Below are positions 2 through 57,580 of a stretch of DNA of 64,000 nt, one piece after another (the stretch's first letter is position 1; each line of letters opens with the position of its first letter). Source of the DNA: a virus; the IMG/VR virus record IMGVR_UViG_3300009514_000888, positions 96,001 through 160,000 of that record; one strand, written 5' to 3'. A model generated the notes under the pieces. It saw nothing but the letters and a program-made list of their open reading frames with translations, did not search any database and had not been told where the DNA came from. Position numbers and translations under genes: made by a program.

Positions 2-601
2 ATGATATTCATGCACATTCCCAGGACAGCTGGGACATCGATTTACATAGCCTTGATGCGAGAGGTTTGGCTTCCTGACAAATCGATCAATCTGGATACG
101 AGATGGGACAAGTACGCAACATACCATGAGTGTCGCGGACATTTTACGGCCGAGACAGCTTTGCTCCATTTGGGGCAGGATCGTTTTGATCGAGAGTTCA
201 AATTTTCATTTGTCAGGAACCCGTGGGACAGGGTGGTGTCGTCTTTCGAGTACAATTGCGCATCTAATTGGTGTGAGAATTTGATATTTGACCAGTATGT
301 TTTTCAGATATTGAGTCCCATAGAGAATGATAGGCACATTGTGCATTCCCTTAACTGCGTGGACATCTTATCCATAGATGGAGAGATGGCAGTTGATTAC
401 ATAGGCAGATTCGAGAACTTGCAACATGACTTTAATGAGCTGTGCCAGATGCAATTGGGGCGAACGGTTCTCCTGCCTCATCTGTCCCCGACTGCCCGTG
501 ATCATTACTCGACTTATTATACGAAAGACACCAGGGAGAGGGTGGGAGAGATTTTTCAGAAGGATATTGAGCGATTTGGGTATAAATTTGAAACAGCATG
601 A
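2..601 (+). CDS. Sulfotransferase family 2 protein
   Basis: HIPRTAGTSI (PAPS 5'-PSB-like), FSFVRNPWDRVVS and DYIGRFENL motifs; may be 5'-truncated at the window edge. Confidence 0.85.
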   Translation: MIFMHIPRTAGTSIYIALMREVWLPDKSINLDTRWDKYATYHECRGHFTAETALLHLGQDRFDREFKFSFVRNPWDRVVSSFEYNCASNWCENLIFDQYVFQILSPIENDRHIVHSLNCVDILSIDGEMAVDYIGRFENLQHDFNELCQMQLGRTVLLPHLSPTARDHYSTYYTKDTRERVGEIFQKDIERFGYKFETA

Positions 602-798
602 ATTGGTATAAAAGAGCAGAGTCCGTCCAGAAGGAAATGTCCGATCTATCTTTGGTCAATCTCGATCTCATTGCCGGTCATGTCGCAGATGTCAAGGGCT
701 GGGTTGAGCAGGGCAAGAAGTTGAAGCCCTGGATGATTGATAAGATTGCAACAGCTAGAAACGACTTGAATGATGTGAATATGTGCCTTTCCAAATAG
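598..798 (+). CDS. Small phage hypothetical protein with N-terminal MNWYKRA motif
   Basis: ATGA overlap with the upstream stop; helical W-x3-KI-x2-A-x2-DL-x2-V pattern of the kind seen in large-phage proteins. Confidence 0.65.
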   Translation: MNWYKRAESVQKEMSDLSLVNLDLIAGHVADVKGWVEQGKKLKPWMIDKIATARNDLNDVNMCLSK

Positions 799-864
799 AG
801 GATTCTCTCTATTTTTATTGAATAAATTTATAGGAGACACTTTCTTTGTAGGAGGGGAAAGGAT

Positions 865-55215: not shown

Positions 55216-55286
55216 ACCTGTTATTCGTAACAAAATGCCCCATCCCTTTGTTAATCTGAGAGCGGGAAGAAGTCGATGGAGGAAGT

Positions 55287-55664
55287 ATGATTGTCAAAAG
55301 GGATGATGATGGCAAGAAAAAACAGGCTGCATCCTCTGATCAACCAGATGCGGCGGGGAAACCTCAACTGACGGCTGGCCAGCTGAATGTCTTAAAGCAG
55401 AGGTGCGAACATGACAATATTGAGTTCTATTACAGGGCGACAGATCGGCTGAAGCATTACATTATCCAAGGGCATCCTATTACCGATCAGCTGCCCGATC
55501 TTATCAAATCTGCCTTACTAGCAGGCAAGGGCATCGCTGTGACGAGAGAGATGATCTATCGATGGATATCTGGCAGCCTTGATCGACGAAATGCTTTCAT
55601 CTTAGAGCATGCAGAGATTCGGGTTGAGAATGATCCCATGACCGTCATTAGGAAATTTTCATGA
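55287..55664 (+). CDS. Hypothetical protein
   Basis: GGAGG RBS; ATGA overlap with the next gene. Confidence 0.65.
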   Translation: MIVKRDDDGKKKQAASSDQPDAAGKPQLTAGQLNVLKQRCEHDNIEFYYRATDRLKHYIIQGHPITDQLPDLIKSALLAGKGIAVTREMIYRWISGSLDRRNAFILEHAEIRVENDPMTVIRKFS

Positions 55665-57580
55665 CTAGATGTCTGGTAACAGGGGGAGCTGGGTTTATAG
55701 GATCGAACCTGGTGGATAGACTCGTGTCTCTCGATGAGCAGGTCGTGGTTATTGACAATCTTTCGAGCGGTCATCTAGAGAACATTCAGTCCAGCATGAG
55801 GGAGGGCAATGTGCAGTTTGTGGAGATAGACATTGCTAACAGGGAAGAGTTGGAAACCTATATGATGGGAGAGGAGTTTGACGCCATCTTCCATCTGGCG
55901 GCTGTTCCGCGCGTTCAGTTTTCCATCGCCAATCCGCACCTGACCAATGAAACCAATATTACAGGGACGCTTAATATGTTATTGGCGGCTAAACGGCAAG
56001 GCATTCAAAGGTTTGTCTATTCCGCCAGCTCATCGGCCTATGGTAATCAGGACGATCTTCCCTTGACTGAGGACATGAAGCCCAACCCCATGTCCCCATA
56101 TGCGTTACAGAAGTTGGCAGGCGAACAGTATGCGAAGATGTTTCATGATTTGTATGGCATGGAGACGGTATCGTTACGGTATTTCAACGTCTATGGAAAG
56201 AAGCAAGACCCAGAAGGCGCATATGCGACTTTGGTTCCCAAATTCATCAATCGCTTGATGGACGGAAAGACGGCGGTGATCAATGGTGACGGCGAACAAA
56301 CTCGTGACTTCTGCATGGGAGCTGGCAGTAGAGTTTTGATGGGAGATTTGACCTGGAAGCCTATAGAGGACATTAGGCAAGGTGACCGTGTTGTTTCATT
56401 TGATGAAAAGCCTACTAATAGAAAGAGAAATTTTAGGGTTGAAACAGTAGAGCATACTACTTCATATATATCCACAAATGTGGTTAAGATAAAAACAGAA
56501 AACCGGGATATTGTTTGCACGAATAATCATCCCTGGTTGACTAATAAGTCTGTTTTTAGAGATGCAAGATGGCTGTCAGAGGCATTAAAGAGGGGAAGTC
56601 CAGGCATTAAGTCTTTTAGCACTCCTGTGTCTTATGAAGAATCCCAATGTTTTAGAGACGGGTATCATAGTTACAGGGATCATGGATCATCTCATTATTC
56701 GACAGGATTAGCAGTTACAGATATGTCTTTTGTGGACAGGTTTGTATCGCATGAAAATGGCGAACACTGGAATCGGTATGAAAGATCGCATTCGTATTCA
56801 GGAAGTCGAACATTACAACCAGGTAAAAAAGAAGTTTTGGATTATCATTTGAGTTTGATTGATAATGCCGATTGGAGTAACGAAGAATTTTGCAGAGGTT
56901 GGTTGAGTGGGGTTTTCGATTCAGAAGGAGCGGTTTCCAAATGGAGTCTTAGACTAAGTAATAAAGACGAGAGAGTATGTGATCGTATTCGTTATGTATT
57001 GAATATGTTTGATTTTGATTGGTCAGAGATGATGAGGAAGGATACTTTGGTTATCTTTTCAATATTAGGAGGTTTGCCAGAGCAGGTTAGATTTTTTGCC
57101 TCCTTTAAGCCAGCTGTAGCTCGCAAACCTGACATGGATGGTCTAGAAGTGAAAGGACATATTGAAAACATAGTTGATATACATCCAACATTATGTCAAA
57201 GAGTTTATAATTTACAGATATCTAATCATAAGACATTCATAGTTGATGGCTTGTTGTGTCACAATACATCTGTCGAAGATGTAGTAGAAGCGAATATTCT
57301 GGCTGCTTGGCCAGATAACGAGTTAGCGTTTGGCAAGACTTTCAATATAGGAGCAGGTCACAATCGTTCGGTCAATGAAGTAGCCCAGGTGATTTGCGCT
57401 GCTGTCGGCGCGGACACGAGTTTGGTCGAGCATGGCCCGGCAGTAATTGAGCCGAAAGATACGTTGGCGAGTATTGAACAAGCCAGTCGATTATTGAGCT
57501 GGGAGCCGATGGTGGATTTCTCGGAAGGTTTAAGCAGGACAGTAGAATACTATATGGAGCAGAAGGAGCAGAGGGCATGA
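55661..57580 (+). CDS. NAD-dependent NDP-sugar epimerase/dehydratase (GalE/WbpP-like) containing an intein
   Basis: GGAGFIGS, YALQK and RYFNVYG motifs; TRDF|intein|TSVEDVV. Confidence 0.9.
   Translation: MTRCLVTGGAGFIGSNLVDRLVSLDEQVVVIDNLSSGHLENIQSSMREGNVQFVEIDIANREELETYMMGEEFDAIFHLAAVPRVQFSIANPHLTNETNITGTLNMLLAAKRQGIQRFVYSASSSAYGNQDDLPLTEDMKPNPMSPYALQKLAGEQYAKMFHDLYGMETVSLRYFNVYGKKQDPEGAYATLVPKFINRLMDGKTAVINGDGEQTRDFCMGAGSRVLMGDLTWKPIEDIRQGDRVVSFDEKPTNRKRNFRVETVEHTTSYISTNVVKIKTENRDIVCTNNHPWLTNKSVFRDARWLSEALKRGSPGIKSFSTPVSYEESQCFRDGYHSYRDHGSSHYSTGLAVTDMSFVDRFVSHENGEHWNRYERSHSYSGSRTLQPGKKEVLDYHLSLIDNADWSNEEFCRGWLSGVFDSEGAVSKWSLRLSNKDERVCDRIRYVLNMFDFDWSEMMRKDTLVIFSILGGLPEQVRFFASFKPAVARKPDMDGLEVKGHIENIVDIHPTLCQRVYNLQISNHKTFIVDGLLCHNTSVEDVVEANILAAWPDNELAFGKTFNIGAGHNRSVNEVAQVICAAVGADTSLVEHGPAVIEPKDTLASIEQASRLLSWEPMVDFSEGLSRTVEYYMEQKEQRA
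56312..57265 (+). mobile_element. Cis intein, 318 aa, with partly degenerate LAGLIDADG domain
   Basis: CMGAGSRV (block A), CTNNHPW (block B), WLSGVFDSEG (block E), VYNL..FIVDGLLCHN with +1 Thr; AT-rich. Confidence 0.92.

Follow-up and report, generated by a model that had tools for sequence, protein, structure and literature searches.

The window analysed here is a 64,000-nt stretch (G000:C1:96001-160000) of a 186,298-bp virus fragment from IMG/VR. This fragment is 39% complete according to CheckV, with a full genome of roughly 480 kb, and 178 of its 200 ORFs lie on a single strand. The virus record, a portal gene upstream of the window (phrog_16240) and a relative (G001) whose complete 461-kb genome has terminal repeats uphold the phage origin proposed in the original prediction: the window is a piece of a huge marine phage genome. 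Soluble enzymes that transfer sugar, methyl or sulfate groups take up about 35 kb of sequence, and the ORFs of this island are intact, tightly packed and on one strand. The gene set had been described as interleaved with virion genes. It does lie beside structural genes, but in comparison with G001 the arrangement is better described as two accessory insertions, at 18.8-48.6 kb and 52.1-57.6 kb, in a conserved backbone of particle genes. The insertion of about 30 kb holds both a glycosyltransferase cassette and fibre-like proteins, and it is missing from the same site in G001. Coordinates below are on the plus strand of the window unless marked (-).

The core of the island consists of four genes. 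The first encodes a GT4 enzyme (19279-20352; PF00534, 44.9 bits), whose counterparts in cassette loci and in G001 are 41-50% identical, and the second a GT2 enzyme (20333-21229; PF10111 and PF00535 above cut-offs), 42-58% identical to its homologs in cassette loci. The third (21300-22073) belongs to a conserved family with an invariant D-x-D-x-W-Q motif and 38-61% identity across 25 loci, without a match in Pfam, PHROG or PDB. The fourth is GT9-like (30640-31704(-); PF01075, E 3e-3, below cut-off); its homologs occur in nearly all cassette loci (30-60% identity) and are fused into 750-900-aa proteins in several relatives.

Re-examination by HMM, fold and motif found the predicted enzyme inventory essentially right. 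Among the roughly 12 glycosyltransferase-like genes counted in the window, eight have HMM or fold support, and the other four were called from motifs or weak matches. Pfam cut-offs are exceeded by both GT4 enzymes, the core GT2 and a GT8 enzyme (54169-54927; PF01501, 26.9 bits against a cut-off of 24.3). The GT4 outside the core (15178-16584; PF13692, 52 bits; PF00534, 39 bits) has a 27%-identical homolog in the tail region of G001, and an N-terminal module of ~55 aa in common with a subtilase at 865. HMM matches fell below cut-off for the GT9-like core gene, for a GT2-like (GT-A) protein in whose sequence a DDD motif was read (2620-3408; PF00535, E 1.2e-3) and for a GT9-like protein with a DTGSSHLA motif (22663-23565; PF01075, E 8e-4). 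Three more genes are glycosyltransferase-like by motif or conserved neighbourhood: the third core gene; a GT9-like gene (28241-28984) with no HMM match, whose homologs (27-29% identical) form part of the cassettes in G001, L109 and L113; and a candidate in the conserved backbone with a GT9-like N-terminal motif (17270-18004). The last gave neither an HMM match nor a significant hhalign result; it is 44.6% identical to G001 93036-93767, which adjoins a subtilase.

A compact GT9-fold enzyme (26149-26934) represents a large phage-specific family, with 1773 representative clusters and at least 541 IMG/VR loci. Its AF2 model (pLDDT 94.6) aligns with GT9 structures at Z 16.6 to 3tov, 16.3 to WaaF, 15.8 to WaaC and 13.8 to TibC. 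Outside GT9 the best chain is WaaA (Z 8.3), and T4 alpha-glucosyltransferase matches poorly (Z 6.5).

The four methyltransferase genes of the original prediction are all recognised by Pfam. They comprise a Methyltransf_11 protein (22073-22663; PF08241, E 8e-6) with homologs in cassette loci, a two-domain Methyltransf_24 and FkbM protein (23552-24847; PF05050, E 3.5e-16; PF13578, E 1.4e-11), an O-methyltransferase-like Methyltransf_24 protein (26931-27536; PF13578, E 7e-17; PF01596, E 5e-5) and a Methyltransf_24 protein at the cut-off (27657-28244; PF13578, E 1.6e-5), which has a 45%-identical homolog in cassette locus L113. A 1090-aa ORF of L026 combines a segment 44% identical to the two-domain methyltransferase with a match to the small GT9-like enzyme. 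Sugar-nucleotide genes were likewise assigned to the expected families: a short, 255-aa hldD-like SDR epimerase (28981-29748; TIGR02197, E 1e-50, 172 bits against a cut-off of 274.6), gmd, GDP-mannose 4,6-dehydratase-like (29670-30725; PF16363, E 2e-72; TIGR01472, E 7e-66, below the equivalog cut-off), fcl, GDP-L-fucose synthase-like and 23 kb away (53198-54172; NF047922, E 2e-115, 385 bits against 500), and a WbpP/TviC/GalE-like 4-epimerase (55661-57580; PF01370, E 5e-57; NF011728, E 2e-55) that a LAGLIDADG intein interrupts, as seen from intein and LAGLIDADG matches.

Five sulfotransferase-like genes had been proposed, two of which are supported by HMMs. One is a Sulfotransfer_2 protein (2-601; PF03567, E 2e-12) with IPRTAGTS and RNPWDR motifs; the gene starts 17 nt ahead of the window, and its homologs adjoin the core cassette in L109 and L112. 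The other (32186-32911) scores 25.7 bits with PF00685 (cut-off 22) and 26.6 bits with PF13469. The remaining three were called from PAPS-loop-like motifs recognised by eye. Two are paralogs with 34% mutual identity (32896-33561(-) and 33539-34261(-); RSGT/RSGS and VRHP/VRDP), for which profile tests were not significant. The third, of 180 aa (39782-40324; PKCASRT and RNPYSRAIS), overlaps the stop of the TPR-glycosyltransferase gene; HMM and pairwise BLASTP searches gave no match, and a homolog search gave at most one, 55% identical. A search for a PAPS-synthesis gene found none.

Other genes lie in the same region. The identities of glpX and phoH were confirmed as predicted, but the supposed GNA1-like GNAT gene is of generic type. 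Mobile elements are abundant (IsrB, inteins, homing endonucleases) and guaC is split. The RRXRR/IsrB-like gene (25128-26144; PF14239, E 1.8e-38) is an insertion in the island, outside the pathway. AMG-like genes unrelated to glycans (glpX, ThiF, ExbB-like, HODM-like) stand alongside.

A TPR-GT9 enzyme (38499-39782; TPR Pfam matches; AF2 pLDDT 90) is the first gene of a tightly packed unit preceded by a strong terminator (38413-38452). Its glycosyltransferase domain is modelled as a GT9 fold (Z 18.1 to 3tov, 15.6 to TibC); the best Foldseek matches of the whole protein are SPINDLY and OGT, at TM-scores of only about 0.3. The family is mostly bacterial, and one homolog lies within the tail-fibre cluster of the cultured cyanophage BUCT-ZZ01. 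In the same operon are two large Thr/Ser-rich, beta-rich proteins of 894 and 753 aa (40745-45694; S+T 0.20), which have an 87-aa segment in common (56% identity) and neither family matches nor a homolog in G001. Upstream, before the terminator, lies a 1176-aa Thr-rich fibre-like protein (34834-38364; S+T 0.217), 38-39% identical to Syn5 gp53, a "structural protein", in segments across residues 254-1175 that cover about a third of the query. Downstream are a 540-aa virion structural protein (phrog_1645, E 8.5e-81), whose homologs carry virion structural annotation in cyanophages and HMO-2011, and a 330-aa Asp/Thr-rich protein (together 45791-48392). Virion-type annotation is thus limited to two of the large neighbours. 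The Thr/Ser richness noted originally is real, at 0.20-0.22 in the four large proteins (34834, 40745, 43433 and 45791) against a contig mean of 0.117 (sd 0.035), but its significance is reduced, since these residues are spread evenly over beta-rich sequence, with no mucin-like tracts, and such diffuse richness is typical of phage fibres. The four proteins are candidate acceptors, two of them in the operon led by the TPR-GT9 gene.

At least 21 phage lineages of IMG/VR carry the core cassette, as does G001, at 38-61% identity and with gene order kept. A poly-serine ORF lies within 10 kb of the core in 14 of the 21 lineages and in none of 18 control lineages, which have small-GT9 loci but lack the core (Fisher p = 8e-6); it is usually directly downstream of the third core gene. 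These ORFs encode 300-2100 aa with 28-85% serine (S+T 35-85%), and neither signal peptide nor TM segment was predicted in them. One of them (L023:3018-7775) is a real gene, because all six serine codons are used. At other loci globular domains stand between the serine tracts, for which we found no homology to each other or to the window's contig. The cassette of G001 is followed by a 1645-aa protein with 52% serine. We found no published description of this link. The protein glycosylation originally proposed gains comparative support from it, but no poly-serine ORF is present in any frame of the 186-kb contig itself. For this phage the acceptor is a matter of candidates only, and it may sit in the part of the genome, ~61%, that the fragment lacks. 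Judged from gene neighbourhoods, the link points to cytoplasmic protein O-glycosylation and argues against lipid-linked polysaccharide or DNA modification.

We think, with moderate confidence, that this is an accessory glyco-island whose soluble cytoplasmic enzymes most likely build an O-linked glycan on Ser/Thr-rich phage proteins late in infection. The gmd and fcl products would supply GDP-L-fucose, and the hldD-like and WbpP-like epimerases a heptose or N-acetyl-hexosamine variant. The portable four-gene core (30640, 19279, 20333 and 21300) would start and extend the glycan on serine or threonine, and further small GT9-fold enzymes, the four methyltransferases and up to five sulfotransferase-like enzymes would tailor it. 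The TPR-GT9 enzyme and its sulfotransferase-like partner appear to be co-transcribed with the two large Thr/Ser-rich proteins, both of which the TPR domain probably recognises, by analogy with other TPR-bearing protein glycosyltransferases. Fibre or decoration proteins of the virion are the probable substrates. We infer the composition of the glycan, its sulfation and the virion location of these proteins.

A different target would be the host surface. The "LPS genes" of marine cyanomyoviruses have been proposed to alter that surface during infection, and the island enzymes could act likewise on host lipid-linked intermediates (lipid A-core, undecaprenyl-PP glycans), with host export, changing LPS, capsule or EPS and so, for instance, preventing superinfection. 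LPS heptosyltransferases have the GT9 fold, both modelled enzymes align at least as well with WaaF and WaaC as with TibC, most of the TPR-GT9 family is bacterial, and GT2, GT4, GT8, gmd and fcl belong to the classic gene repertoire for O-antigen and core. As predicted, export genes are lacking: no flippase- or polymerase-type membrane protein is encoded in the window, where the ExbB-like gene is the only multi-pass membrane protein, or in the complete G001, which has no protein with five or more TM segments. The island enzymes are soluble. The lack of export genes counts in favour of protein glycosylation, but it is compatible with use of host machinery, and as host Wzx, Wzy or Lpt could serve, it is uninformative about host-surface remodelling. 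We nevertheless regard host-surface remodelling as rather unlikely, since it leaves unexplained the core beside giant poly-serine proteins without signal peptides (14/21 lineages), the gain of enzymes and fibre-like genes as a single block, and a protein-binding TPR domain on the GT9 enzyme heading an operon of large proteins. It is also conceivable, and quite unlikely in our view, that the region is a hotspot for accessory genes with no common role. In that case several genes would be passengers in decay, and parts of the region would glycosylate either a host protein or a non-structural protein of the phage, or would produce a soluble glycoconjugate. The wealth of mobile elements (including split guaC), the unrelated AMG-like genes, the 23 kb between gmd and fcl, the short hldD-like gene and an acceptor known only as candidates would fit such a mixture. 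Against it, the ORFs are intact, tightly packed and on a single strand, and the core is conserved at 40-60% identity with gene order kept across distant phages, implying selection for a function that its genes perform together.

DNA itself can receive diverse sugars, heptose included, from GT-A and GT-B enzymes of phages (Pyle et al., bioRxiv 10.1101/2023.12.21.572611), and phage gene clusters have been shown to modify 5hmC with hexoses, heptose or Kdo. The island's transferases, all or some of them, could likewise put a complex glycan on hydroxymethylated phage bases and so evade restriction. Those clusters resemble the island in their glycosyltransferases, epimerases and sugar-activating enzymes, with heptose among the transferred sugars. 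Of 136 proteins encoded near members of the small GT9-fold family across 17 lineages, three are Tet_JBP proteins, three C5 DNA methylases and two clamp loaders, and DNA polymerase and helicase genes are also nearby; because TET and C5-methylase genes lie near it in 3 of the 17 lineages, some members may act on DNA. For the island, DNA hypermodification seems very improbable. DNA-glycan pathways are normally clustered with a base-modifying enzyme (Pyle et al., bioRxiv 10.1101/2023.12.21.572611), whereas the 186-kb contig has no match to TET, thymidylate-synthase-type (ThyS) hydroxymethylase or C5-methylase, and none lies beside the core genes of relatives. In G001 the sole match is weak, ThyS-like and about 170 kb from its cassette; the complete, cassette-bearing G005 has no ThyS-type match, and a TET search, which gave no match in any control genome either, gave none there. 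The 26149 model fits T4 alpha-glucosyltransferase (Z 6.5) far less well than GT9 (Z 16.6), and sulfation, four O-methyltransferases and the poly-serine link are without DNA precedent.

O-glycosylation of phage proteins, the reading we prefer, has several parallels. Gram-positive serine-rich repeat glycoproteins (GspB, Fap1, PsrP) are glycosylated by GtfA/GtfB and follow-on transferases. The window's cassette relatives resemble them in placing a giant serine-repeat protein beside a dedicated multi-enzyme cytoplasmic cassette; unlike them, the phage cassettes lack an accessory Sec system, signal peptide and cell-wall anchor, their enzymes are GT9-like and of the DxD family, and the window itself has no serine-repeat protein. 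The chlorovirus PBCV-1 encodes GMD/GMER, glycosyltransferases and FkbM-type methyltransferase domains for capsid glycosylation. Like PBCV-1 and Mimivirus, with its fibril glycosylation, the window belongs to a large virus that encodes a GDP-fucose pathway together with several glycosyltransferases and sugar O-methyltransferases, and we propose that it likewise decorates particle proteins without host secretory machinery. Those, however, are eukaryotic viruses with atypical N-linked glycans on the major capsid protein, and their systems have neither sulfotransferases nor GT9-fold enzymes. The autotransporter heptosyltransferases TibC/Aah (PDB 4RAP) are GT9-fold enzymes that O-heptosylate protein serines in the cytoplasm. 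Both modelled enzymes align with TibC (Z 15.6 for TPR-GT9, 13.8 for 26149), and an hldD-like gene is present, but LPS heptosyltransferases match them as well or better and the window's acceptor is not an autotransporter. SPINDLY is a GDP-fucose-using protein O-fucosyltransferase and belongs, with OGT, to GT41. The TPR-GT9 enzyme shares with both, and with Caulobacter FlmG as described, an N-terminal TPR superhelix fused to a GT-B catalytic domain, which is here of GT9 type and not GT41.

Among phages, Che8, Corndog and Myrna O-glycosylate their own structural proteins with phage-encoded glycosyltransferases (Freeman et al. 2023, as cited in PMC12619734). As outlined there, those systems act in the cytoplasm and, like the window's, place soluble phage glycosyltransferases beside particle genes. 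According to the same account (PMC12619734), the mycobacteriophages use two to four genes beside capsid and tail-tube genes, acting on short C-terminal tails. Set against that description, the window has about 25 enzyme genes, including those for sugar-nucleotide synthesis, methylation and putative sulfation, and they adjoin fibre-like proteins rather than a capsid gene.

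A glycan, sulfation and methylation gene set is confirmed in the genome of a phage. The IMG/VR record is 186,298 bp long (the window being its bases 96,001-160,000) and 39% complete according to CheckV, so the genome is expected to be near 480 kb. The contig has a GC content of 0.47, 178 of its 200 called ORFs lie on the + strand, and a portal gene (phrog_16240, E 2e-39) is found 24 kb upstream of the window. A complete relative, G001 (460,978 bp, with terminal repeats), has a portal 59-64% identical and is collinear with the contig over long stretches. Given the portal, the strand bias and this collinear relative, the phage origin assumed in the original prediction is firm. 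No match to deposited phages was obtained by megablast with 20 kb, and nothing useful came from pattern-based IMG/VR searches in which closely related sequences were sought with the 915-aa protein, the portal or TPR-GT (38499-39782, a glycosyltransferase with TPR repeats). The 'Moraphages' (PMC12619734) were considered as the lineage and no link to the contig was found.

Enzymes were assigned by Pfam/NCBIfam HMM searches, with fold comparison for two proteins; genes are named here by their start in the window. Well supported, all on the + strand, are two GT4 enzymes (15178 and 19279), a GT2 (20333) and a GT8 (54169). The same searches recovered four methyltransferases (22073, 23552, which has two domains, 26931 and 27657; all +) and glpX. 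They also gave gmd (29670, +; TIGR01472, E 7e-66) and fcl (53198, +; NF047922, E 2e-115), each under its equivalog cut-off, an hldD-like epimerase that is short (28981, +) and a WbpP/TviC-like epimerase into which a LAGLIDADG intein is inserted (55661-57580, +). All the nucleotide-sugar genes and the glpX named at the outset are present. The acetyltransferase taken for GNA1-like is a generic GNAT, the specific GNA1 signal being absent. Two sulfotransferases (2-601 and 32186-32911, +) combine a family HMM match with the 5'-PSB and 3'-PB PAPS-binding motifs. Softer members are a sub-threshold GT2 (2620, +), two weak Pfam matches to GT9 (22663 and 30640(-)), three GT-like genes recognised by motif (17270, 28241 and 21300, +) and three sulfotransferase-like genes with motif-like strings only (32896(-), 33539(-) and 39782). 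The list of about 12 glycosyltransferases, five sulfotransferases and four methyltransferases could be reproduced, about a third of it being soft in this sense. BLASTP, profile-versus-PDB and hhalign comparisons gave no sulfotransferase confirmation for the 32896/33539 pair, pairwise BLASTP, the sole test, was null for 39782, and homolog searches with these three genes returned one relative each.

Two minor features touch these enzymes. Within the glycan island, the two-domain methyltransferase gene is separated from the small GT9-fold gene by an RRXRR (IsrB/IscB-type) gene (25128-26144), apparently a mobile element that has inserted into an operon. A module of about 55 aa ending in L..L...G.h.h.S occurs in a subtilase-LTD protein (865-1050), GT4 15178 (15200-15360), ORFan 16506 (about 16800-16980) and a 190-aa protein just past the window (contig 160038-160200); BLASTP recovers one pair only (subtilase/160038, E 2e-4), and a common role of the module in targeting or docking is possible.

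Both genes of the de novo GDP-L-fucose pathway are in the window. Since gmd and fcl fall under the equivalog cut-offs, their exact substrate specificity is presumed, and the gmd-like gene, which adjoins the hldD-like gene, could possibly act as a GDP-heptose dehydratase instead. The hint of heptose comes solely from the hldD-like epimerase. From the enzyme families, we infer a glycan that would contain fucose, heptose or HexNAc variants, O-methyl groups and sulfate. An APS kinase (PF01583) was matched neither in the contig (39% of the genome) nor in four of five relatives bearing the core cassette described below; PAPS for any sulfation would therefore have to come from the host.

The genomic arrangement was clarified by synteny with G001. 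Both phages share a backbone that runs from 16506, 17270 and the subtilase gene 18001 through 48634, 50028 and 57577/57872/phoH to actin-like and tail genes. The approximately 30 kb at 18826-48619, which hold the cassette, tailoring enzymes, sulfotransferases, fibre-like proteins and the TPR-GT operon, are missing at the equivalent G001 position, and a second insertion relative to G001, the fcl-GT8-epimerase group, lies within 52.1-57.6 kb. According to this synteny, the genes first described as interleaved with virion genes do lie in the structural region, but as accessory blocks of enzymes and large Ser/Thr-rich proteins inserted in a conserved backbone. It had also been asked whether a related jumbo phage keeps the island by its structural genes: G001 has the core cassette, but the block is absent at the same site, and a poly-serine protein accompanies the G001 cassette in place of the fibre-like proteins. 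Paralogous small genes (48389-48619 and 52978-53196; 76 and 72 aa, 50% identical) stand on either side of the backbone pair 48634/50028.

The cassette was recognised by comparing related loci. Among 80 IMG/VR loci with the small GT9-fold family (relatives of 26149-26934), several hold many homologs of window genes in conserved order. A second search by the best-conserved member, the 21300 family (invariant D-x-D-x-W-Q; no PDB sequence match), returned 25 loci, in which a core of four genes is common at 38-61% identity: GT9-like 30640, GT4 19279, GT2 20333 and the 21300 family. Next to this core there are usually methyltransferases and, in some loci, small GT9-like genes, gmd, an epimerase or a Sulfotransfer_2 homolog. 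All six frames were scanned without bias for poly-serine ORFs, defined by a stretch of 150 aa in which S/T make up at least 50%. Of the 21 lineages with the cassette, 14 have such an ORF at most 10 kb from it, most often immediately behind the 21300 homolog, and 0 of 18 control lineages with small-GT9 loci without the core have one (Fisher p = 8e-6, by our own lineage count).

In the clearest case (L023:3018-7775, an IMG/VR locus), 1351 of 1585 residues are serines, all six serine codons are used and a Lys or Arg occurs about every eighth residue; judging from its sequence, this ORF is a real gene. In other poly-serine ORFs, long serine linkers connect globular beta-rich domains. Neither signal peptides nor TM segments were found in the poly-serine proteins, and their globular domains have no detectable similarity across lineages or to this contig; the giant protein of another locus, L011, matched only hypothetical proteins among deposited phages. 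The G001 cassette (450.6-457.8 kb) is followed, over the circular junction, by a 1645-aa protein of 52% serine (457997-2063). A second, smaller poly-serine protein of G001 (56046-57053), encoded near the portal among conserved structural genes, has in common with it an N-terminal start of approximately 30 residues (MPSTGFKL...GNIYSG..SW.N). The corresponding site of this phage (contig 52345-52713) holds a gene for 122 aa with no serine tract, and none of the six frames of the 186-kb contig gave a poly-serine ORF in the scan. Serine-rich-repeat glycoprotein systems likewise have a poly-serine acceptor beside the enzymes, as do the 14 lineages, G001 included, but not this contig. A full-text literature search returned nothing on phage sulfotransferases in this context, nor on poly-serine proteins paired with phage glycosyltransferases.

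What lies beside the enzymes here is a set of large fibre-like proteins. The 1176-aa protein (34834-38364) resembles Syn5 gp53, an annotated structural protein that we take to be the horn protein, and the 540-aa protein (at 45791-48392, with the 330-aa protein) is phrog_1645, a virion structural family common to cyanomyoviruses and phage HMO-2011. PHROG and Pfam gave no match for the 1176-, 894-, 753-, 330-, 430-, 637- and 915-aa proteins; for the 894-aa protein tblastn was also negative and an Atlas search reached unnamed viral clusters only. The Thr/Ser enrichment pointed out in the original prediction is real (S+T 0.20-0.22 in four large proteins versus 0.117 +/- 0.035 for the contig), but it is diffuse, within Gly/Asp/Val-rich beta-type sequence. 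Since diffuse S+T is normal for fibres, it is by itself no evidence of glycosylation.

A strong terminator (38413-38452) ends the 1176-aa gene. Past it come TPR-GT, the 180-aa sulfotransferase-like gene (39782-40324), a 138-aa gene and the 894- and 753-aa genes (40745-45694), and given their overlaps or gaps of 0-3 nt, TPR-GT through the 753-aa gene look like one operon. As had been claimed, TPR-GT and the sulfotransferase-like gene are inside the structural block: TPR-GT sits between the Syn5 gp53-like protein and the large fibre-like proteins, with phrog_1645 downstream. A further glycosyltransferase (contig 163665-164891; phrog_2170, E 1e-10), about 3.7 kb past the window end, has no G001 homolog, and the genes flanking it are conserved in G001. 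Glycosyltransferases in or beside structural genes are also the arrangement of mycobacteriophage virion glycosylation.

Further information on two of the enzymes was obtained from structure models. Residues 147-427 of the TPR-GT model (pLDDT 90) aligned with GT9 structures at Z 18.1 (3tov), 16.9 (1psw, WaaF) and 15.8 (2h1f, WaaC), and the model of 26149-26934 (pLDDT 94.6) aligned with the same structures at Z 16.6, 16.3 and 15.8, the next non-GT9 chain (WaaA) scoring 8.3. Alignment with TibC was slightly under WaaC/WaaF for both (Z 15.6 for TPR-GT, 13.8 for 26149). The TPR-GT catalytic domain and 26149 are thus predicted to have the CAZy GT9 fold, WaaC/WaaF-like; the comparison covers these two proteins, 22663 and 30640 being placed by weak Pfam matches and 28241 and 17270 by motif. 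With the whole TPR-GT chain, Foldseek placed SPINDLY and OGT, TPR-bearing protein O-glycosyltransferases, at the top at TM about 0.3. The TPR N-terminus gives TPR-GT an architecture similar to that of GT41 (OGT/SPINDLY), but its catalytic domain resembles GT9 structures and it is not a member of GT41; Pfam/NCBIfam gave weak GT9 matches and none to GT41. In BAHT systems (TibC/Aah) the autotransporter acceptor lies beside the enzyme, whereas here the neighbours are fibre-like proteins.

Sequence searches reached less far. An HMM from the TPR-GT catalytic domain matched itself only, hhalign of profiles A1/A2 against 17270, 22663, 26149, 28241 and 30640 gave probabilities of at most 28%, the A2 profile matched nothing among PDB sequences, TPR proteins swamped the results of the TPR-GT profile there, and tblastn with the small GT9-like gene found no match. 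The GT9 assignment of 26149 was settled by fold comparison alone. Its family is very large and mostly viral (1773 representative clusters, at least 541 IMG/VR loci). No TPR-GT homolog was found in five large cassette-bearing relatives; the pattern search gave one viral relative (L009), in an uninformative genomic context. The cultured cyanophage BUCT-ZZ01 encodes a homolog of the GT domain, with tail fibre and BNR-repeat genes on one side of it and a giant VrlC-like gene on the other.

Cytoplasmic protein O-glycosylation is the best explanation of the gene set, favoured by the link between cassette and poly-serine proteins, the gain of enzymes and large proteins together, and a GT9 catalytic domain that is joined to TPR repeats. 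The original prediction had the phage build a fucose/heptose-containing, sulfated, O-methylated glycan in the cytoplasm and attach it to virion proteins; protein glycosylation is likely, whereas the virion location and the fucose, heptose, sulfate and methyl chemistry are candidates. The acceptor would be either a diffuse Thr/Ser-rich fibre-like protein or one encoded in the genome part beyond the contig. Remodelling of the host surface is possible too, since GT9, GT2, GT4, GT8, gmd and fcl are typical of LPS and O-antigen synthesis and export could be left to the host, but it leaves the poly-serine association unexplained. Wzx/Wzy- or ABC-dependent loci carry a polytopic flippase, polymerase or permease and an initiating phosphoglycosyltransferase, whereas by a hydropathy scan the only multi-pass protein in the window is the ExbB-like one, in agreement with the earlier remark that no flippase, polymerase or export genes are visible. 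The complete G001 encodes no protein with five or more TM segments, and the only polytopic protein of the fragment, which is unassigned (contig 9804-10688, 294 aa, eight predicted TM segments), is encoded upstream, at a distance of about 86 kb from the window and of about 100 kb from the core cassette. Few polytopic membrane proteins also fit with cytoplasmic protein O-glycosylation. The ExbB-like channel gene is followed by two for small membrane proteins, and a ThiF-family E1-like enzyme and a HODM_asu-like protein are encoded in the same stretch (9861-11904, 12113-12997 and 8696-9817); all of these seem unrelated to glycan synthesis.

Glycan hypermodification of DNA by phages has a real precedent (Pyle et al., bioRxiv 10.1101/2023.12.21.572611), and the small GT9 family is sometimes near TET, C5-methylase and replication genes. 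However, such clusters have a 5mC/T dioxygenase with a C5-methylase, or a ThyS-type hydroxymethylase, nearby, and PF12851, PF00303 and PF00145 (TET, ThyS-type, C5-methylase) were unmatched in this contig (39% of the genome). In the cassette-bearing phage G005 (100% complete) a ThyS-type match is absent and a search for TET was negative too, though the latter is weaker evidence since the TET model gave no match in any control genome; in G001 there is just a weak ThyS-like match, about 170 kb off the cassette. We consider this explanation very improbable for the present genes.

To our knowledge, experimental evidence of glycosylated phage particles is confined to a few mycobacteriophages, whose systems comprise two to four enzymes; the approximately 25 genes of this huge marine phage are on a different scale and appear to include its own nucleotide-sugar supply, methylation and possibly sulfation. 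Comparative genomics ties this system to giant poly-serine proteins across many phage lineages. New with the window are the variant without a poly-serine acceptor on the contig, the unusually large tailoring set and the TPR-GT9 operon. Taken jointly, these findings could reflect a portable, undescribed protein O-glycosylation system of huge marine phages (GT9-like, GT4, GT2 and a new DxD-motif family) that makes mucin-like coats on giant Ser/Thr-rich particle proteins. Its largest version here, expanded in this phage with GDP-fucose supply, four O-methyltransferases, up to five sulfotransferases and a TPR-GT9 that targets beta-rich fibres and not poly-serine tracts, would give a bacteriophage a sulfated, methylated 'glycocalyx'. 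We put this joint reading forward tentatively and hold it rather doubtful. If real, phages would be able to make mucin-like or glycosaminoglycan-like surfaces, with a bearing on host recognition, adhesion to marine gels or mucus, protection from proteases and grazers, and the immune visibility of therapeutic phages. Testable functions would also follow for unannotated phage families: the compact GT9-fold family, the DxD-motif family and the poly-serine proteins. The closest published phage precedent, judging from the passages of PMC12619734 that cite it, is virion glycosylation in mycobacteriophages.

Inteins and homing elements recur along the contig. At 3616-6372 a guaC/IMPDH-family GMP reductase is encoded in two genes: the N-terminal piece ends with a Hint domain, the C-terminal piece begins with an intein C-terminal motif, and a NUMOD3 homing-endonuclease gene lies between them. 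The pair looks like a split-intein 'fractured gene'. The 697-aa backbone protein at 50028-52121 carries a LAGLIDADG_2 domain, a selfish insertion, its G001 homolog being an ORF of about 345 aa, and the portal upstream of the window has Hint-type similarity. Upstream of the portal, a 605-aa protein (contig 65669-67486) contains the motif (K)SFNLRK(Q/K)A three times, one copy preceded by a run of nine serines, and could be a scaffold-like protein with these repeats as protease-processing sites; its G001 homolog likewise repeats FNLK(Q/K).
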